Position numbers and translations under genes: made by a program | In this document: in pieces, positions 217-8,472 of the stretch | Position numbering within the stretch: the first letter of the stretch is position 1 | Layout: every line of letters starts with the position of its first letter | Assembly: GCA_029955215.1 (NCBI GenBank) | Contig: GCA_029955215.1_4351.1 | DNA from: a phage | Length of the DNA: 42,897 nucleotides | Strand: one strand, 5' to 3' | The notes under the pieces: generated by a model | What the model was told of the DNA's origin: nothing | Database searches by the model: none | The model's input: the letters and a program-made list of their open reading frames with translations, nothing else

Positions 217-417
217 GTGATGGTTATGTTTAAGAAGGGTCAGTTGGTGAAATGCACCAACGGTAGACACGGCATAGTTGAATTAAAATCTGATTTATTT
301 CCAGGGGAGTACATTGTGATTGTGCAAAATGTGGGAGGAGTAAACTCGGTAATACGCACGCCCGAGGAAGATTTAAAACTCATCGGCAACAATTTTAAAT
401 TCAAAGGGGCGAAGTGA
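217..417 (+). CDS. hypothetical early protein (66 aa; start may be a downstream ATG)
   Basis: ORF downstream of class I promoter; no recognisable motif. Confidence 0.45.
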   Translation: MMVMFKKGQLVKCTNGRHGIVELKSDLFPGEYIVIVQNVGGVNSVIRTPEEDLKLIGNNFKFKGAK

Positions 418-620
418 TGGAAGAATTATTTGAGGAACTGAAACACCATGAGTTCGAGGAAATATATTTTGTAGCTGAACGCTACGAGGTGCATCTGGTG
501 GACGGTATAACGGTTATTACATCTACCAGTGAGCGAATGTTAAATAGCTTACAGGCTATACGAACGGCATCGAATCATGATGCTCGCGCCGACGACTCTG
601 AGGGAGGTTGCCGTAAATGA
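414..620 (+). CDS. hypothetical early protein (68 aa)
   Basis: ORF overlapping upstream stop (ATGA coupling); acidic N-terminus. Confidence 0.45.
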   Translation: MMEELFEELKHHEFEEIYFVAERYEVHLVDGITVITSTSERMLNSLQAIRTASNHDARADDSEGGCRK

Positions 621-808
621 GAATTCGTATAACTGATGTTGATTATGTGCTGCCGCCGTCTTATGGCGACCACCCTTTGCGACACTTTGGGGTTTCGGTG
701 GGTGATGTGTTCTATGTCACCTATCGCAACGACTATGGGTATCTTGTAGAGAAGGATGGTGAAGAACTGTTTATCCGTAACATAGAGGCGGAGATTATCT
801 GTGAATAA
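617..808 (+). CDS. hypothetical early protein (63 aa)
   Basis: ORF with overlapping start/stop coupling. Confidence 0.45.
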   Translation: MRIRITDVDYVLPPSYGDHPLRHFGVSVGDVFYVTYRNDYGYLVEKDGEELFIRNIEAEIICE

Positions 809-856
809 TTACCAGTTTATTTTAATTGTCAGCGCCGTTTATGTGGTGCACGCGTT

Positions 857-1090
857 ATGGGGGTTGGTATGAGAAAACACATAATCAAGGTGGACTATCT
901 GGATGGGGTTAAATTACCGACGAATAAGATAGAAACGTGGTGCGGGGTTACCCCATCGTACGGTGAATGGCTGTTCCAGGATGCTCAACACGCCTTAATT
1001 GCTGTAGAAAACGGATTCAGGCAAGAGCCTTGCGCACAGTGTTTATCCGCTATCGTCCAGATCGCAACTCAGGCATTAAGTGAGGACTAA
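857..1090 (+). CDS. hypothetical early protein (77 aa)
   Basis: ORF in same-strand array. Confidence 0.4.
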   Translation: MGVGMRKHIIKVDYLDGVKLPTNKIETWCGVTPSYGEWLFQDAQHALIAVENGFRQEPCAQCLSAIVQIATQALSED

Positions 1091-1093
1091 GTT

Positions 1094-1237
1094 ATGAGAG
1101 AAGCATTTGAACGGTGGGCCGTAGTCGAGGGTCTGCCGGTTAACAAGGGTTCGAAGAAAGAGTACCTGAACGTTAAGACGCGTCTCGCGTGGCGGGCGTG
1201 GAAAGCTGGTGTGCGAGCGGTTATGAACCGGGGGTGA
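1094..1237 (+). CDS. hypothetical small protein (47 aa, not in ORF track)
   Basis: ATG 1094 four nt after upstream stop; translation MREAFERWAVVEGLPVNKG..., stop TGA 1235-1237. Confidence 0.35.
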   Translation: MREAFERWAVVEGLPVNKGSKKEYLNVKTRLAWRAWKAGVRAVMNRG

Positions 1238-1240
1238 GAT

Positions 1241-1453
1241 ATGGGAGAGTGGATTAAGTGTAGTGAGCGGTTGCCGGAAGATACCAAAATGTTACTGGCA
1301 TTTAGTCAAGGTGAAATCGTGGCGGCATATTGGAACTGGGTTGTAAATCCAATTGATTACAAAAAAAAATATAGGGGGTTTACGTATCTGTCCGGTAATG
1401 AACTTGGCGGAGTAACCCACTGGATGCCGTTACCAGCGCCGCCGGAAGTGTGA
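1241..1453 (+). CDS. hypothetical protein, DUF551-like (W-x-x-x-x-E-R-L-P and W-M-P-L-P motifs)
   Basis: MGEWIKCSERLPED...THWMPLPAPP resembles phage DUF551-type proteins from memory. Confidence 0.45.
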   Translation: MGEWIKCSERLPEDTKMLLAFSQGEIVAAYWNWVVNPIDYKKKYRGFTYLSGNELGGVTHWMPLPAPPEV

Positions 1454-1486
1454 TGTTCAATAGTTTGAGATTTTACTGAGTGACTT

Positions 1487-1520
1487 ACGCTGCTACACAG
1501 CAGCGTATCATTTTTCTCAT
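1487..1520 (+). terminator. rho-independent terminator
   Basis: 8-bp stem acgctgct/agcagcgt with acac loop, followed by atcatttttctcattttt. Confidence 0.6.
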
Positions 1521-1577
1521 TTTTGTTCTATTTCACGAAACGCAACAATCGAAGCGACTATTGCAGGAGATGCAACA

Positions 1578-1754
1578 ATGAAAACGTTCACAGAGAAACT
1601 TATGGAGTGCGTTGCGAAGCGAGATGCTGCAGTCCGCAGCTACCGTAAATGCGCCAACTGCGGCAGCGAGCAGGTACAGTTAATCTCGTACCTCAGCAGT
1701 GAGGTTACGCATAAGTGTAGAAAATGCCATCACGTAAATCGTAGACACCGATAA
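1578..1754 (+). CDS. small zinc-ribbon-like protein (58 aa; CxxC...CxxC)
   Basis: ATG 1578; CANCGSE ... CRKCHH cysteine pairs. Confidence 0.4.
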   Translation: MKTFTEKLMECVAKRDAAVRSYRKCANCGSEQVQLISYLSSEVTHKCRKCHHVNRRHR

Positions 1755-1761
1755 AATTTAC

Positions 1762-1790
1762 TTGCACGCTAAGATAGAATAGGCTACTAT
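1762..1790 (+). promoter_or_regulatory. sigma70-like promoter, class I (TTGCAC-N17-TACTAT)
   Basis: TTGCAC 1762-1767, TACTAT 1785-1790, same spacer family as 163-191. Confidence 0.6.
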
Positions 1791-1820
1791 TCATTTACAC
1801 GAACGAGAGGAGAGACAGAG

Positions 1821-1970
1821 ATGGTTACTTTGATGATTATGGAATTCGAAAACAGCACCGCAACTTACCGTGAGATGGCTATGGCGCAGGCGTACCACCT
1901 GGCCTCAAACGGCAACTTCTACAAGGCCCAAATCATCAATGAGTTCGGGGTAATTGACTATGAATTTTAA
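1821..1970 (+). CDS. hypothetical small protein (49 aa, not in ORF track)
   Basis: ATG 1821 preceded by gagaggagagacagag; stop TAA 1968-1970. Confidence 0.4.
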   Translation: MVTLMIMEFENSTATYREMAMAQAYHLASNGNFYKAQIINEFGVIDYEF

Positions 1971-2232
1971 CAGCTACACTGTGACCGTTGATTTTGAGGG
2001 GCTGGATTTGCCCCTCCCCAACAACTATAGGTATATAACCCGTGACCGTTTCGGTTTTATTCAGGGGTGGAGGAACAAACCAACATACACTGAGTTCGGG
2101 ATGTCAGGAGGAGAAGAGTTGCCAATCACGTTCGGACATCAGAGTAGCAACGAAGAACTTAAAACTGTGATTCGTAAGTATCGTCGCCGCGGTAACACTG
2201 GGTTTATAGCGATAACCGGCGCTCTTGAGTAA
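1960..2232 (+). CDS. hypothetical protein (about 90 aa)
   Basis: ORF track 1954-2232 begins at TTG; first ATG at 1960. Confidence 0.45.
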   Translation: MNFNSYTVTVDFEGLDLPLPNNYRYITRDRFGFIQGWRNKPTYTEFGMSGGEELPITFGHQSSNEELKTVIRKYRRRGNTGFIAITGALE

Positions 2233-2248
2233 GAGAGAGAGGCAGAAG

Positions 2249-2581
2249 ATGGGTAACAAAAACGAAGTATTCGAGTACCTGATTGACCAGCTACGGCAGC
2301 AGGTAAACAACAACCAGTGCGAAGACCTGGCGCACGAGGTGCAGTCACTTAAGAATCAGTTACGTGATGCGTCGGCGCAGATTAGGGATTTGCATGTCGC
2401 CTTGGTTAAAGCTACTGGTGATGTAGAGGCTTACAAAGTTCTACGCAAGTGCGCGAAAGTGCCCGAGCAATCCGGTTGCCGTAAGGAAGACGTGCAGGAA
2501 TGCTGCCACGACTTTGAATACATATACCCCGAAAGTGGGGCGCATCGTCATTGTATTAAATGCGGATGGACAACCGAATGA
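2249..2581 (+). CDS. hypothetical protein with coiled-coil N-terminus and Cys-rich C-terminus (110 aa)
   Basis: ATG 2249 after RBS-like gagagg; C-terminal CCHDF...HRHCIKCGW. Confidence 0.45.
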   Translation: MGNKNEVFEYLIDQLRQQVNNNQCEDLAHEVQSLKNQLRDASAQIRDLHVALVKATGDVEAYKVLRKCAKVPEQSGCRKEDVQECCHDFEYIYPESGAHRHCIKCGWTTE

Positions 2582-2781
2582 CCAGCATCTTATTTATCTG
2601 GGTATTATACGCGGGCCAGATGCAACTAGCGGCATCAGAAACGTTTTACTCGATGGAGGCGTGCCAGTCAGCGGCACGCGCCGCAGAGAACGCGCACTTC
2701 CTGTTTCAGGGAGACAAGCCCAACGATTCAGAGGTGCGCGCTATCTGCTCACCTAAGCGACTTGGTAAACAGGAGAAATAA
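2578..2781 (+). CDS. small protein with N-terminal signal-peptide-like hydrophobic segment (67 aa)
   Basis: ATG 2578 overlaps upstream stop (ATGA); MTSILFIWVLYAGQMQLAAS... Confidence 0.45.
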   Translation: MTSILFIWVLYAGQMQLAASETFYSMEACQSAARAAENAHFLFQGDKPNDSEVRAICSPKRLGKQEK

Positions 2782-2782
2782 C

Positions 2783-2965
2783 ATGGTACAGAGATATAGC
2801 TACAACCCGATGTTCGGGTTTACTCCTGATGTTGAAGGCGGGTTAGTGCTTTACGAAGATTACGTGAAACTCGAAGCCGAGTTACAGAAATACAAAGACC
2901 AGTTCCCGGATTACGTCGAGTGCGCGAACTGTGGGTCAGTTACACATGTGGAAGGGGCGGAGTGA
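2783..2965 (+). CDS. hypothetical protein (60 aa)
   Basis: ATG 2783 preceded by AGGAG 2771-2775. Confidence 0.45.
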   Translation: MVQRYSYNPMFGFTPDVEGGLVLYEDYVKLEAELQKYKDQFPDYVECANCGSVTHVEGAE

Positions 2966-3258
2966 TGTCTTTAGCAACTGACATCCTGAAACGAAGCGGC
3001 CTTGCGCCGCTGTCACCAAGAGCGAACACCAGAATATACAAGCGCCGCCGTAACGCGCTGTTCCCTGAGATTCAGGCCAGACTCAAAGCTGTCCGCGCCT
3101 GTGGATTCCAGAACGGGAAGGCCGTGAATCTCGGTGAGTTTAAAACAAAGGAACGCGCCGCAATCGCTAACCGGTTATTTAATTACTGGAAATCGATGGG
3201 GTACGATGATATTCCAACGAAACCGCAGAGACGACAATACATCTGGAGACATAAATGA
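2965..3258 (+). CDS. hypothetical basic protein (97 aa)
   Basis: ATG 2965 overlaps upstream TGA; RBS gaagggg. Confidence 0.45.
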   Translation: MSLATDILKRSGLAPLSPRANTRIYKRRRNALFPEIQARLKAVRACGFQNGKAVNLGEFKTKERAAIANRLFNYWKSMGYDDIPTKPQRRQYIWRHK

Positions 3259-3695
3259 CTACTATCGCGTTTGACGGAAAGACAATGGCCTGTGACACCC
3301 GTGCTGTTTGCGGGAGTAACTGTTACAGCACAGACACTAAGATATACGAGAATGATTTCTCCGTTATTGGGGTGGCTGGTGATGCGGGGGTCAGCACTAT
3401 GCTTATAGATTGCCCGTATATCCTCCAGGCCAGACCATATGACTTCGATTTCGAAGCCCTGGTATTCGTGAAAGACGCAGAAAAGGTGTATAAAGTAGCG
3501 TTTTATAAATCGTGGGATTGTGCCCTTAGTTCGGTTATTCCGGTTGCCGATAGCTTTTCGGCTGTGGGGTCTGGCTCCCCTTATGCTCTGGCGGCTATGT
3601 ATTTAGGTAATACGGCAACACGTGCGATTACTGTAGCCGCACAATTTGACACTAACACCGGTGGTAAGATTATTACCAAACGACTATTAGGATAA
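3255..3695 (+). CDS. HslV/proteasome-beta-like Ntn-hydrolase family protein (146 aa)
   Basis: N-terminal MTTIAFDG (Thr directly after Met) and internal AVGSGSPYALAAM align by eye with E. coli HslV MTTIVSV... / AIGSGGPYAQAA. Confidence 0.6.
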   Translation: MTTIAFDGKTMACDTRAVCGSNCYSTDTKIYENDFSVIGVAGDAGVSTMLIDCPYILQARPYDFDFEALVFVKDAEKVYKVAFYKSWDCALSSVIPVADSFSAVGSGSPYALAAMYLGNTATRAITVAAQFDTNTGGKIITKRLLG

Positions 3696-3754
3696 ATCCT
3701 AACCGTGCTATCCTCCAGTTACTGCATACTTAATACGCACCTGGAGGATTCATC

Positions 3755-4063
3755 TTGGATAAATTTACTGAAACAGTGACAGGCTGGCTTCTCGCTGCCG
3801 CACTAGCCGGAGGGGTAATCGGACTAAGGCAACATAAGTCCGCTATTTCCGGCCCTATCGACGGATTCTGCTTTATCGCAACTGGCTTCACTTGCGCTGT
3901 ATTTGGCGCACCTCTCGCGGCGCAATGGTTTGGCATTACCGGAGAACGCGAGATAGCTGGCCTGGGCTTCATTATTGCTATTCTCTGGATGCCTATCTAT
4001 TCCCGTCTCTCCGGTATCGTCGCTGGAGAATACATCGCACGTCGAGGAGGCACAGATGAATGA
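3755..4063 (+). CDS. holin-like membrane protein (TTG start, 102 aa)
   Basis: Multiple hydrophobic helices; GGAGGA RBS 3743-3748; directly upstream of endolysin. Confidence 0.55.
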   Translation: MDKFTETVTGWLLAAALAGGVIGLRQHKSAISGPIDGFCFIATGFTCAVFGAPLAAQWFGITGEREIAGLGFIIAILWMPIYSRLSGIVAGEYIARRGGTDE

Positions 4064-4328
4064 GTTATTCTGGTTCGGCGGTATGCTGGCAATTGGAGGC
4101 ACATCGCTGTTTAATGTATACCACCCCAGCGTTGACGACGGGTTATTCGGCCGGGTGCTCTATATCCTGACTGCTATTGTCTGCGCCGCTGGGTGTATCC
4201 ACCTGTTACAGGGCAGCATGTCACCTACGTTGCCGGAGACATTAATCGCATTAGTTGCGCTGCGTCAGGTTCGTCAGGCGTGGCTGTCATACGGAGGACA
4301 TAAGCGTGTCTCGAAACATTTCAGATAA
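4056..4328 (+). CDS. second small membrane protein of lysis cassette (holin/antiholin-like, 90 aa)
   Basis: ATG 4056 after GAGGAGG RBS; two predicted TM segments; ORF track start 3975 is probably too far upstream. Confidence 0.5.
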   Translation: MNELFWFGGMLAIGGTSLFNVYHPSVDDGLFGRVLYILTAIVCAAGCIHLLQGSMSPTLPETLIALVALRQVRQAWLSYGGHKRVSKHFR

Positions 4329-4794
4329 TGGGTTGCATTTTACCGCTGCGTTCGAGGGATTCCGCGGCACTGCGTATCGCGCGACACCAAACGAGAAGTA
4401 CCTGACTATTGGTTACGGAAGTTATGGCCCGCATGTTAAGGTGGGACAGACCATCACGCCTGGTCAAGGCCTCCTGTTACTGAATCGCGATATGGCTAAG
4501 GCCGTAGCTGCGGTTGACGCAGCAGCACACCATTCATTGACACAGGCTCAGTTCGACGCAGTGTGTGACTTGGTTTATAACGCAGGCGCTGGCGTGATTG
4601 CAGCTACTACAGGCACTGGTAAGGCGCTACGCTCAGGCGATATTGCGACGTTGCGGGCTAAGCTGGCACTATTCATCAACCAGAACGGCAAACCATTACT
4701 TGGCCTGCGCCGCCGTACCGCCGGTCGTCTGGCGCTGTTCGACGGTAAACCGTGGCAGGAGGCGGAGGCTATCGGGCGCGCGGTGAAAGGTTGA
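4306..4794 (+). CDS. endolysin, phage lysozyme (GH24, lambda R / P22 gp19-like)
   Basis: TIGYG..., QAQFDAVCDLVYNAG and LRRRTAGRLALF resemble the P22 gp19 / lambda R lysozyme family; GTG 4306 after GGAGGA RBS (start uncertain). Confidence 0.8.
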   Translation: MSRNISDNGLHFTAAFEGFRGTAYRATPNEKYLTIGYGSYGPHVKVGQTITPGQGLLLLNRDMAKAVAAVDAAAHHSLTQAQFDAVCDLVYNAGAGVIAATTGTGKALRSGDIATLRAKLALFINQNGKPLLGLRRRTAGRLALFDGKPWQEAEAIGRAVKG

Positions 4795-4858
4795 CACATA
4801 AGACTAATCCGACGATACTTAAATCACCTCCTGTTCCATCCCTCTGCTCTCCAGTTTT

Positions 4859-4890
4859 ATCCCGGCCCTGACCCAGCCGGGATTTTTTTA
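4859..4890 (+). terminator. rho-independent terminator
   Basis: Stem atcccggc/gccgggat followed by ttttttta. Confidence 0.7.
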
Positions 4891-4911
4891 TCTATTTTCT
4901 GTAATGACTAG

Positions 4912-4940
4912 TTGACTATTACCTACGACCCTATTATATT
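4912..4940 (+). promoter_or_regulatory. sigma70-like promoter (TTGACT-N17-TATATT)
   Basis: TTGACT 4912-4917, 17-nt spacer, TATATT 4935-4940; about 35 nt upstream of ATG 4974. Confidence 0.6.
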
Positions 4941-4973
4941 TACTCCATCGACAACGAGAACGGAGTAGAGAAG

Positions 4974-5123
4974 ATGAAAATCACAGATATCGAAGCATTC
5001 AAAGACGCACAACTGATGGCACGCATCGCCATTAGTAATCCGAGCAACAGCATCGCCGCGGACGCGTTCTGGTTCGCTGCGATGCAGGCACTGAAAGCAG
5101 CATATGCAGGAGAGAAGAAATGA
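4974..5123 (+). CDS. hypothetical small protein (49 aa, not in ORF track)
   Basis: ATG 4974 after ggagtagagaag; stop 5121-5123. Confidence 0.4.
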   Translation: MKITDIEAFKDAQLMARIAISNPSNSIAADAFWFAAMQALKAAYAGEKK

Positions 5124-5281
5124 GCGAACAAGGCCAAGTAAACCAACCACTACGAGTAGGTCGTAAAGTCAGCCACACCCCGTTCCCGACACGCGAGGAA
5201 CTGATGAAACGTGACAGTTTCCCGGGGCCGGACAAGAACAAGTACCTCAATCGCATGTGGGGAGAGCGTAAAAATGACTGA
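5120..5281 (+). CDS. hypothetical small protein (53 aa, not in ORF track)
   Basis: ATG overlaps upstream stop (ATGA). Confidence 0.4.
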   Translation: MSEQGQVNQPLRVGRKVSHTPFPTREELMKRDSFPGPDKNKYLNRMWGERKND

Positions 5282-5471
5282 CCGTGAATATGAAAAGATG
5301 ATGGTAGAGGCTGTTAACGGCGGCGTAGACATAGGCCACGTGATGCACGTCCTTAATACTAAAATCGCGGTAGCTGAGCAAATGGTTGAGTCGCTTTACG
5401 AGACACGCCGTGAACTGATTAACCGCTTTAATCTGAATAAAGCCCAGGGTGATGGGCATGAAAGCGCCTGA
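5274..5471 (+). CDS. hypothetical protein (65 aa)
   Basis: ATG 5274 in frame of ORF-track 5211-5471; coupled to upstream gene. Confidence 0.4.
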   Translation: MTDREYEKMMVEAVNGGVDIGHVMHVLNTKIAVAEQMVESLYETRRELINRFNLNKAQGDGHESA

Positions 5472-5640
5472 ACCGGTAGTTATTGATGGCGTCCTGTGGA
5501 AACCCTACTCGGTCAACCACATCGACGCCGACGGGAAGAAGTTCAGCTTCTACATTTTTGCAATTAGCCGGGAGCACGCCGCCTGTGTGGTCGAAGATAT
5601 ACGAGAAACGGCGTGGCTTGGTGATGAGATAGTGGGGTGA
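5458..5640 (+). CDS. hypothetical protein (60 aa)
   Basis: ATG 5458 overlapping upstream gene end. Confidence 0.4.
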   Translation: MKAPEPVVIDGVLWKPYSVNHIDADGKKFSFYIFAISREHAACVVEDIRETAWLGDEIVG

Positions 5641-5642
5641 GT

Positions 5643-5828
5643 ATGTTCAGCGACATCAACGCAGCAATCGAAGAAGCAATCTGGCGTCGCTACAACGGCG
5701 AACAACAGCGGCACTTCTGTCTTGTGCAACGCGGAAACATGATTGCCGTAGTACAGGACCGTGATAACAAATATCCGAATGCGATGTGGACAACGAGAGG
5801 GTTTAAAAATGCTAGTAAGAATCGATAA
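5643..5828 (+). CDS. hypothetical protein (61 aa)
   Basis: ATG 5643 after ggggtgag. Confidence 0.4.
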   Translation: MFSDINAAIEEAIWRRYNGEQQRHFCLVQRGNMIAVVQDRDNKYPNAMWTTRGFKNASKNR

Positions 5829-6009
5829 GCTGGAACCGGGCATGAAAGTGGTATCTAAGAATGGGCCACGCACAATAACCGGGCTTAAAAGCATGAAGCA
5901 GATGCCGAATGGCCGTGTAGTGTACGCGTGGTTTGCTACGAAGTCGCATCCACGACATGCGAGAACCATAGTAGGATGTGGAGATGTCGTGATTGAGGTG
6001 GTGGAATGA
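5809..6009 (+). CDS. hypothetical protein (66 aa)
   Basis: ATG 5809 after gagggt. Confidence 0.4.
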   Translation: MLVRIDKLEPGMKVVSKNGPRTITGLKSMKQMPNGRVVYAWFATKSHPRHARTIVGCGDVVIEVVE

Positions 6010-6586: not shown

Positions 6587-6679
6587 TACATCCTGCCCAA
6601 TCCCCTTATATAATCCCTTTAGACGCGTAGGGCGCGTCTGGTGCGCTCTGATGGTCAGACGCATATGCAAGGGGATTCT

Positions 6680-7225
6680 ATGAAGCTGAAACTTAAGCAG
6701 CCATCGCCAGAGGTGGTGCAAGCTGCACATGAAGAAGCTGTTAGCGCAAACCGTCGCCGTAAACGACCGCGCGGTAAACAGAGCCTTTATCAATCATCCC
6801 GTAATTCCGCTGCGTTGTGGGACCCGGACTATTGCGACGAATTGATTCGTTTCTTCGACCGCACGTCATGGGAACTTGTGCCTACGTCTAAAGGTGACGA
6901 ACGCCCGCTGATTCAGGATAAACCCCCGTCACTTGCCCGCTTCGCCTTACACATCGGCGTCACTATCCCGATTATTAAGCTATGGCTGCGTGAGATTCCC
7001 GCATTTGCAGAAGCCTATGAAACCGCACAGGCGCTGGAAGAGGCATACTTCACCGAGACAGGGGCCGCGGGTATCTCTGCTACATTTGCTGCCGCGAAGC
7101 TGGGCCTCAGTAAAGAGAAACCGGTTGAATCCACCGAAGAAACAGCACCGACTGAGATTATTTTCAGTGTTGCGGAGCCTGTAGGTAAAATCGTAACAAC
7201 GAATATGGGCGAGGTAGAGGAATGA
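6680..7225 (+). CDS. terS: terminase small subunit (putative)
   Basis: Immediately upstream of and overlapping terL; basic N-terminus, HTH-like segment; ATG 6680 after aagggga. Confidence 0.6.
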   Translation: MKLKLKQPSPEVVQAAHEEAVSANRRRKRPRGKQSLYQSSRNSAALWDPDYCDELIRFFDRTSWELVPTSKGDERPLIQDKPPSLARFALHIGVTIPIIKLWLREIPAFAEAYETAQALEEAYFTETGAAGISATFAAAKLGLSKEKPVESTEETAPTEIIFSVAEPVGKIVTTNMGEVEE

Positions 7226-8472
7226 GTATCCATCTATCCGCCCCGCAGGCGCTGTTCCTGAATTGCGATAACAAATATAAGGCCTATGTAGGCGGCTTCG
7301 GCAGCGGCAAAACATTTGTTGGCTGCCTAGACCTGCTTACGTTTATGCTTAAGCATCCCGGTACACGCCTTGGCTACTTTGGACCAACATATCCGGCTAT
7401 CCGAGACATCTTCTATCCGACATTCGAGGAAGCGGCTAACCTGCTAGGCCTCGATGTGCTTGTTAAATCTGGGGACAAAGAGGTAGTGGTTACCCGTGGT
7501 AAGACAGTGCTCGGGACAGTTATCTGCCGGTCGATGGATAACCCAGGCTCGATAGTCGGCTTCAAAATCGCGGCTGCGGTCGTGGATGAGCTCGATGTAT
7601 TGAGTCGCGAGAAAGCTGAGCTGGCGTGGAACAAAATCGTAGCCCGTATGCGTCTGGTCATCCCGGGCGTAATCAACCACATCTCCGTAACCACGACACC
7701 GGAAGGATTCAAGTTCGTCTACGCCAAGTTCAAAGAGAACCCGACGCCGAGCTACTCTATGGTGCAGGCATCAACTCATGAGAACGCCAGATTCCTGCCG
7801 CCGGATTATATTAGCTCGCTGACAGAGACTTACCCGGCGCAGTTGATTAACGCATATCTTAACGGTGAGTTCGTCAACCTGACATCCGGCAGCGTGTATT
7901 ACGCATACGACCGCCGTAAGCATCGCAGCAAAGAGACAATTCAGCCTGGCGACACGCTGTACATCGGGCAGGACTTCAACGTTACGAAGAATGCCAGCGC
8001 CGTGTATGTGCAACGTAAAGACGGCTGGCACGCGGTAGCGGAACTGAAAGGACTGTTCGATACGCCGGACACCGTGCGCGTAATTACTGAGAAGTGGAAG
8101 TCACAAGGCCACCGCATCGTCGTTTACCCTGACGCCAGCGGCAAGAACCGCAAGACCAACTCGGCGTCAATCTCTGATATTGCATTACTCCAGCAGGCCG
8201 GGTTCGATGTTCGCGCTAAATCCGCCAACCCCCCGGTTAAAGACCGCGTTTTAGCCGTGAATACCGCGTTGGAAAAAGGTAAGCTGTGGGTTAACGACCA
8301 CTTATGCCCTGAGATAGCCAAGACGCTGGAGCAGCAGGCATACGACGATAATGGAGAGCCAGCTAAAGACGGCATCATTGACCATATGGCCGATGCTCTC
8401 GGTTATCCTGTAGTTTACGAGATGCCGGTGGTTAAACCAGTAATCAACATCCCGGTGACTTTTGCACTTTAA
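7222..8472 (+). CDS. terL: terminase large subunit
   Basis: Walker A GGFGSGKT, Walker B VVDELD; 416 aa; precedes portal. Confidence 0.9.
   Translation: MSIHLSAPQALFLNCDNKYKAYVGGFGSGKTFVGCLDLLTFMLKHPGTRLGYFGPTYPAIRDIFYPTFEEAANLLGLDVLVKSGDKEVVVTRGKTVLGTVICRSMDNPGSIVGFKIAAAVVDELDVLSREKAELAWNKIVARMRLVIPGVINHISVTTTPEGFKFVYAKFKENPTPSYSMVQASTHENARFLPPDYISSLTETYPAQLINAYLNGEFVNLTSGSVYYAYDRRKHRSKETIQPGDTLYIGQDFNVTKNASAVYVQRKDGWHAVAELKGLFDTPDTVRVITEKWKSQGHRIVVYPDASGKNRKTNSASISDIALLQQAGFDVRAKSANPPVKDRVLAVNTALEKGKLWVNDHLCPEIAKTLEQQAYDDNGEPAKDGIIDHMADALGYPVVYEMPVVKPVINIPVTFAL

Follow-up and report, generated by a model that had tools for sequence, protein, structure and literature searches.

Results

Gene organization surrounding the PPH gene

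The window, the whole stretch of 42,897 nucleotides analyzed here, is the complete genome of a Kagunavirus-like (Guernseyvirinae) E. coli siphophage, and its plus strand carries a gene for a proteasome-like hydrolase of the PPH family directly upstream of the lysis genes (Table 1). The reading frame of the PPH gene (146 codons plus stop, ATG start), the N-terminal sequence MTTIAFDG, and the internal GSGSPYALAAM segment (residues 105-115) were all as described in the first-pass annotation. The surrounding region is ∼89-91% identical to the corresponding regions of vB_VIPECOMC04, CR01, and BASEL Bas73, and the only NCBI entry for the exact 146-residue protein is "hypothetical protein NEP52_21445 [Escherichia coli]", the phage genome having been deposited as part of a bacterial assembly and not under a phage label. 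The ATG is the first start codon 3' of the in-frame stop, and homologs align from their own residue 1, so the start codon is well defined. It overlaps the stop codon of the preceding ORF, which suggests translational coupling of the two genes; Bas73, RcXuper, PAK_P3, and metagenomic loci show this 4-nt overlap as well. An AP2-like DNA-binding function that had been guessed by eye for the preceding ORF was dropped for lack of a Pfam match.

The lysis cassette begins with the next ORF after the PPH gene, and the same strand goes on to encode the terminase and structural proteins; Jerseyvirus wksl3 has the same synteny. The first-pass annotation had counted it among the early genes; this is unproven, as the timing of expression cannot be read from the sequence. 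Between the PPH stop and the first holin lies a predicted RNA hairpin (ΔG of -19.7 kcal/mol, z of -3.87 versus shuffled sequences), the 3' arm of which covers the GGAGGA Shine-Dalgarno sequence (3743-3748) of the TTG-initiated holin. Because no T-run is present the hairpin is not an intrinsic terminator, and it may gate translation of the holin; its sequence also occurs in the relative L006, which has no PPH gene. A sigma-70-like promoter match (TTGACA, 16 nt, GATTAT; 10/12) was noted at 3646-3673, within the 3'-terminal part of PPH and upstream of the holin, and may be due to chance since the whole scan returned 7 sites versus 9.3 in shuffled sequence. As a separate observation, the Rz-like spanin genes of Bas73 are situated among its head genes (5509-6004), several kilobases from the holin-holin-endolysin genes, so the lysis functions of that phage are split over two loci; in the window, the equivalent position would likewise fall between head genes.

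Table 1. Features of the window at and around the PPH gene
Feature	Position	Strand	Remarks
Small-ORF array	217-3258	+	Upstream of PPH
Small ORF preceding PPH	2965..3258	+	97 aa from the Met matching phrog_9632; longest ORF from 2920; no Pfam match
Ribosome-binding site GGAGA	3245-3249	+	Read from sequence
ATGA start/stop overlap	3255-3258	+	TGA of preceding ORF with ATG of PPH; read from sequence
PPH-family proteasome-like Ntn threonine hydrolase gene	3255..3695	+	PHROG, profile, hhalign, predicted fold
Candidate catalytic residues (Met1 numbering)			Thr2, Asp14, Lys29, Gly39, Gly42, Gly105-Ser106-Gly107, Asp132, Thr135-Gly136
Segment missing from PPH-less Kagunavirus relatives	3257..3684		∼428 bp, essentially the ORF; flanks ∼94% identical on both sides
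RNA hairpin between PPH stop and holin	3696..3760	+	Core 9-bp stem 3710-3718 / 3741-3749
Lysis cassette (holin-holin-endolysin)	3755..4794	+	Directly downstream of PPH; followed by more small ORFs
Holin	3755-4063	+	TTG start; phrog_2359
Second holin	Within ORF 3975-4328	+	phrog_2508; probable start 4056
Endolysin	Within ORF 4255-4794	+	
Small and large terminase	6641-8472	+	
Head and tail genes	After terminase, to about 30 kb	+	
Replication module	30.7-42.1 kb	-	

Assignment of the protein to a described family

The protein matched PHROG 1040 ("peptidase HslV family") with an E value of 3.9e-34 and covered positions 14-154 of that 277-position profile. Single-sequence comparisons were much less sensitive: the match to Pfam PF00227 (E = 0.03, 14.4 bits) lay below the gathering score of 22.4, and in a phmmer search of the PDB the proteasome and HslV chains appeared only at E values of at least 0.037, so profiles were needed. 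The top match of the phmmer search, a 4-carboxymuconolactone decarboxylase (E = 0.0039), was dismissed because neither the profile nor the fold searches reproduced it. When a family profile built from 46 diverse members was compared to the PDB, the matches were HslV (E = 2.2e-12), BPH (Betaproteobacteria proteasome homologue; 1.2e-9), and proteasome beta5 (∼7e-8), and this search yielded no solved structure closer than these three. Alignment by hhalign to E. coli HslV gave a probability of 96.9% over residues 1-135 versus 1-166, pairing MTTIA with MTTIV and GSGSPYA with GSGGPYA.

An exhaustive search returned 2114 representatives at E ≤ 1e-3, most of them 135-155 residues long, and the BFVD contained 43 viral structure representatives of the same fold at that threshold. 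Homologs were present in about 400 GenBank phage records (401 counted), often annotated as "peptidase HslV family", "protease", or "ATP-dependent protease", and the Sciku record itself cites HHpred similarity to Ntn-hydrolases. Longer relatives were also seen in the BFVD, namely A0A1W6DWU9 (263 residues, 53% identity) and A0A2I7R6C7, A0A6G5YGZ5, and A0A5B9NBU4 (275-279 residues). In these phage proteins of about twice the length the PPH domain spans only one half, and they are possible counterparts of the published "RPC" proteins, which have a C-terminal extension. By tblastn (E ≤ 1e-3), five Microbacterium phage records matched; were these to be genuine full-length PPHs they would provide a further argument against HslU dependence, as Table 1 of PMC8665760 shows no HslV in Actinobacteria. 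One candidate was discarded as a repeat artifact: P0138 (2655 residues), with 12 stretches matching the N-terminal region of the query (E = 1.3e-11), is a trimeric autotransporter adhesin of the Vomp/Ata type.

Predicted fold and comparison with the PPH description

An AlphaFold2 monomer model computed from an 80-sequence alignment had a pLDDT of 92.6 and a pTM of 0.88. Foldseek returned BPH, beta5, and HslV as the best matches of this model, all with a probability of 1.00. The predicted fold is a proteasome-type Ntn sandwich in which one short helix takes the place of the first helix pair and no C-terminal helix is present. Its only helices are residues 46-51, 108-116 (H3), and 121-131 (H4); the first of these, six residues long, is the single helix between a strand ending at 42 and a strand starting at 66, and the last element is a strand at 139-143 of the 146-residue chain. 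A non-Ntn fold, which would have argued against the first-pass assignment to the HslV/proteasome-beta-like Ntn hydrolases, was not obtained, and that assignment was borne out by PHROG 1040, the family profile, hhalign, AlphaFold2, and Foldseek alike.

The PPH family was named and described bioinformatically by Fuchs et al. 2021 (PMC8665760), who placed it in group I along with HslV, BPH, AAH, and CPH. According to that study, PPH proteins have ∼140 residues, occur in Caudovirales and prophages, possess the catalytic triad, and have no propeptide; the absence of H2 is a trait unique to PPH and RPC, and PPH is without a C-terminal S12/H5 or extra C-terminal domain, the latter distinguishing it from RPC. 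The phage protein resembles this description throughout. It is encoded by a siphophage, its 146 residues compare well with ∼140 (most of 136 representatives have 135-155), and its MTT start places the nucleophile right after Met with no propeptide. The triad and oxyanion residues (Thr1/Asp17/Lys33 and Gly47) are represented by Thr2, Asp14, Lys29, and Gly39. With regard to H2, the model has just the 46-51 helix and hhalign left the H2 region of HslV unaligned or deleted; no S12/H5 or additional domain follows at the C terminus, and the nearest relatives are HslV and BPH. We conclude that the protein is a member of this already described family and is not new, as judged by the PPH features tested, all of which it shows. 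The novelty implied by the first-pass annotation thus does not hold for the family, which had been published and annotated in many phage records, and its statement that no phage role was established does hold. Literature searches for experiments on phage HslV-like or PPH proteins returned annotations plus one localization result only (Erwinia phage RAY gp116, see below). The Guernseyvirinae clade to which the protein belongs differs from most PPHs by a 6-residue insertion at 81-86 and by Cys53 in place of Trp.

Comparison with HslV and other proteasome-type proteins

The protein shares with HslV the fold, the N-terminal Thr, the equivalents of Asp17, Lys33, and Gly45, and the GSG-PYA motif, but it is ∼30 residues shorter. 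The H2 region (about HslV 64-92) with its Arg86/Arg89/Lys90 cluster is absent, the H3-H4 loop is shorter by ∼9 residues, and the last ∼10 residues at the C terminus are also missing. The scores against the NCBIfam HslV equivalogs were 12.9 bits for TIGR03692 (cutoff of 157.75, a shortfall of more than 140 bits) and 12.7 for NF003964 (cutoff of 137). On these sequence grounds the protein is not an HslV orthologue. Its closest structural relative is BPH (PDB 5ovs and 5ovt), a chromosomal, bacterial protein in contrast to the phage-borne PPH. BPH has H1-H4 and a long acidic pore loop following H2, whereas in the phage protein H2 is missing and the corresponding segment, residues 52-65 (CPYILQARPYDFDF), contains no acidic run. 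Compared to the catalytic beta subunits of the 20S proteasome (PF00227), which have the same fold, it is without propeptide, alpha-ring partner, H2, and H5. The features of connectase, in which H1 and H2 are both absent and a two-helix insertion between S3 and S4 covers the active site, were not found.

These comparisons bear on the proposal, made in the first-pass annotation, that the phage subunit pairs with HslU of the host, in which case it would form HslV-like rings that dock on the ATPase to yield a hybrid ATP-dependent protease of altered specificity. The proposal is in keeping with HslV being the best PDB match of the family profile, with the MTTIA/MTTIV start and the GSG-PYA motif common to both proteins, and with the inspected hosts of PPH phages being Proteobacteria, a phylum with HslV (PMC8665760, Table 1). 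Furthermore, jumbo phages carry HslV-like proteins but no HslU, which makes a host partner conceivable. The HslU C-terminal tails bind in grooves between HslV subunits. In HslV, Arg86/Arg89/Lys90 shift in conformation upon HslU binding and their mutation cripples the enzyme (PMC5777263); this cluster is missing here together with the rest of H2, part of the H3-H4 loop, and the C-terminal end, and the curated HslV model was failed by a wide margin. BPH likewise descends from HslV and has lost the HslU-interface residues, and pull-downs gave no ATPase partner (PMC5777263); the closest structural relative does not bind HslU. The pairing proposal was thereby weakened, and we regard it as unlikely. 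Independence from HslU is suggested by the missing elements, by the analogy with BPH, and by the lack of an HslU-like gene among the window ORFs of at least 140 residues and in the complete annotated genome of the relative Bas73, the intersubunit grooves for the HslU tails being beyond the reach of a monomer model.

Conservation of the candidate catalytic residues

Residue conservation was assessed using 136 near-full-length representatives (125-175 residues, 30-45% identity to the query), giving 137 rows with the window protein included. Thr2 was conserved in 135 rows (one Ser), Asp14 in 136, and Lys29 and Gly42 in all 137. Within the Gly-Ser-Gly motif, Gly105 and Gly107 were invariant and Ser106 was found in 129 rows; Ala111 was also invariant (137/137), and Asp132 and Gly136 were retained in 129 and 127 rows, respectively. 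The N terminus was MT or VT in 131 of the 136 representatives. In the hhalign comparison, Thr2, Asp14, Lys29, Gly39, and Gly42 correspond to HslV Thr1, Asp17, Lys33, Gly45, and Gly48. Gly42 had been considered as the counterpart of the proteasome oxyanion-hole Gly47 and was rejected on account of its pairing with Gly48; the pairing of Gly39 with HslV Gly45 identifies Gly39 as the oxyanion-hole equivalent, a position occupied by Gly in 110 rows and by Ala in 22 of the 137. A Thr nucleophile directly after the initiator Met was thus supported, the Asp, Lys33-equivalent, and Gly-Ser-Gly elements were conserved in homologs, and a loss of catalytic residues, which would have spoken against the assignment, was not seen. 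E. coli methionine aminopeptidase strips Met when Thr follows, and E. coli HslV matures in this way; exposure of the Thr in the phage protein without a propeptide is thus plausible. An intact catalytic site need not mean ordinary peptidase activity, since BPH is inert on standard peptide substrates and casein (PMC5777263).

Pairwise dN/dS values for the Kagunavirus PPH orthologues ranged from 0.10 to 0.23, indicating that the coding sequences are under purifying selection. These values and the residue counts also address the second function raised in the first-pass annotation, that of a decoy, by which a non-catalytic poison subunit would titrate HslU or co-assemble with host HslV to halt HslVU proteolysis. 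The small size of this HslV homologue and its retention of the ring-contact helices H3 and H4 would suit such a function, and inhibition of host proteases is common among phages. A decoy could do without Thr1, Asp, Lys, and Gly-Ser-Gly, yet at 30-45% identity these residues are invariant or nearly so, which makes a catalytically dead protein unlikely; the low dN/dS likewise disfavors it, and the parts that are missing are precisely the HslU-facing elements. We consider the decoy function very improbable.

Distribution and allelic variation among related phages

In the Kagunavirus vB_EcoS-Ro145c2YLVW, sequences aligning at ∼94% to window positions 2900-3256 and 3685-4100 flank the site, the intervening ∼428 bp, which extend from the start codon to a point ∼11 nt short of the PPH stop, are absent, and tblastn found no trace of the PPH protein in that genome. 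Just 33 of 117 related records that match window positions 3000-3950 contain the gene, and most of the others, including K1G, K1H, K1ind2, and BASEL Bas70-72, match the two flanks only; BASEL Bas73 carries it, unlike Bas70-72. Its absence from most close Kagunavirus relatives shows that the gene is accessory and dispensable. Most Jerseyvirus genomes encode a PPH of ∼60% identity at the same position, and for this reason ancestral presence followed by repeated loss or by cassette exchange appears the likelier history from the sequences. The preceding ORF, 2965..3258, persists in relatives that are without PPH and so is not its obligate partner. In the BASEL phenotyping, Kagunavirus isolates are described as very similar in behavior whether or not they carry PPH, and no difference between carriers and non-carriers is given, so no benefit of PPH is documented.

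The location of the gene could be taken to indicate a core protease of prohead morphogenesis or a factor that regulates the neighboring holin/endolysin genes, as in both Kagunavirus and Jerseyvirus the holin-holin-endolysin genes follow PPH immediately and a prohead protease is not annotated in Bas73. However, most Kagunavirus relatives, among them K1G, K1H, and Bas70-72, have no PPH and yet retain the same lysis and head genes, so PPH cannot be central to head maturation or lysis. The adjacency was not seen in Xop411, VLCpiS13d, EL, PAK_P3, or RcXuper, and in Dewey the lysis cassette is ∼2.3 kb upstream of the PPH gene. Adjacency to the lysis cassette is clade-specific, and we give a prohead or lysis function almost no credence.

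Among the Kagunavirus orthologues, two alternative alleles were observed at residues ∼44-80, the most variable part of PPH, which stands in for H2 and the pore loop, and two more at ∼116-131, comprising the end of H3 and H4. All four combinations occur (A/A in the window, A/B in UTEC10, B/A in Sciku, and B/B in Bas73 and SCS92), which points to intragenic recombination. Such variation could be accommodated by a sequence-specific processing enzyme or, as connectase is, a transpeptidase/ligase, which would act on one defined phage or host protein instead of degrading proteins in bulk. The proteasome superfamily includes that ligase and apparently inert rings such as BPH in addition to proteases. 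PPH is without H2, and PMC8665760 anticipates that the new homologs in general will have quaternary structures without precedent. We view this function as rather doubtful.

Gene context in distant phages

We inspected the neighborhood of PPH homologs in distant phages and metagenomic contigs and observed no conserved neighbor or partner gene across them. The homologue of Xop411 resides among small genes of the early region, those of VLCpiS13d and Dewey among small ORFs, that of PAK_P3 in a block of small genes after a helicase, and that of EL adjoins PhuZ; three metagenomic contigs have it in co-directional arrays of unannotated small ORFs. In Rhodobacter phage RcXuper (733-5462) and in DSS3_MAL1 (739-5450) it is part of a co-directional block in the order RNA ligase, P-loop polynucleotide kinase (AAA_33), PPH, a hypothetical protein of ∼150-168 residues with no Pfam match, a bifunctional NMN adenylyltransferase/Nudix protein, and NAMPT. 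The RNA ligase with the kinase and the NMN adenylyltransferase/Nudix protein with NAMPT are modules of tRNA-repair and NAD-reconstitution counter-defense, respectively, and by guilt by association the block looks like a counter-defense island. A further observation concerns Erwinia phage RAY, of which gp116, an HslVU-family protease and at most a candidate PPH, co-localizes with the phage DNA, probably inside the phage nucleus. The authors of that study speculated that gp116 could help overcome host defenses.

Discussion

We consider it probable that the gene encodes a catalytically competent N-terminal-threonine hydrolase of the PPH family that is independent of HslU and serves as an accessory, host-dependent fitness factor rather than in a core function of lysis, morphogenesis, or replication. 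PPH would represent a minimal, ∼140-residue offshoot of the HslV/BPH branch within the proteasome-beta superfamily. Host methionine aminopeptidase would remove Met1, as it does for E. coli HslV, to leave Thr as the N-terminal nucleophile, the free amine of which would work together with the equivalents of Lys and Asp. On the model of HslV, BPH, and the 20S beta subunits, the protein would assemble into a ring or double ring by way of the retained H3 and H4. Because the HslU-responsive H2 region is missing, the enzyme would function as a peptidase without the host HslU ATPase, acting on some host or phage protein.

A more specific proposal, which we put forward tentatively as one possibility, is that PPH is a self-assembling, ATPase-independent threonine protease that cleaves a specific host immunity or proteostasis protein and is swapped between phages as a counter-defense or host-takeover effector. 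It is prompted by four observations: PPH is a cassette that near-identical phages either have or lack, a variety of phages carry it within arrays of small accessory ORFs, it is flanked in phages of Rhodobacterales by RNA-repair and NAD modules, and its most variable segment, at the presumed substrate-entry face, recombines as alternative alleles.

The identification itself was already known, the family having been described in 2021 and the gene being routinely annotated. The phage studied here offers a practical entry to the function of viral proteasome homologs, being a small E. coli siphophage with natural, near-isogenic relatives that have (Bas73) or do not have (Bas70-72 and K1G) the gene. 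Should PPH turn out to be a minimal proteasome ring that is active without a partner, no smaller member of that architecture would be known, and if it is a counter-defense effector, a functional role would for the first time be assigned to a viral proteasome homologue.
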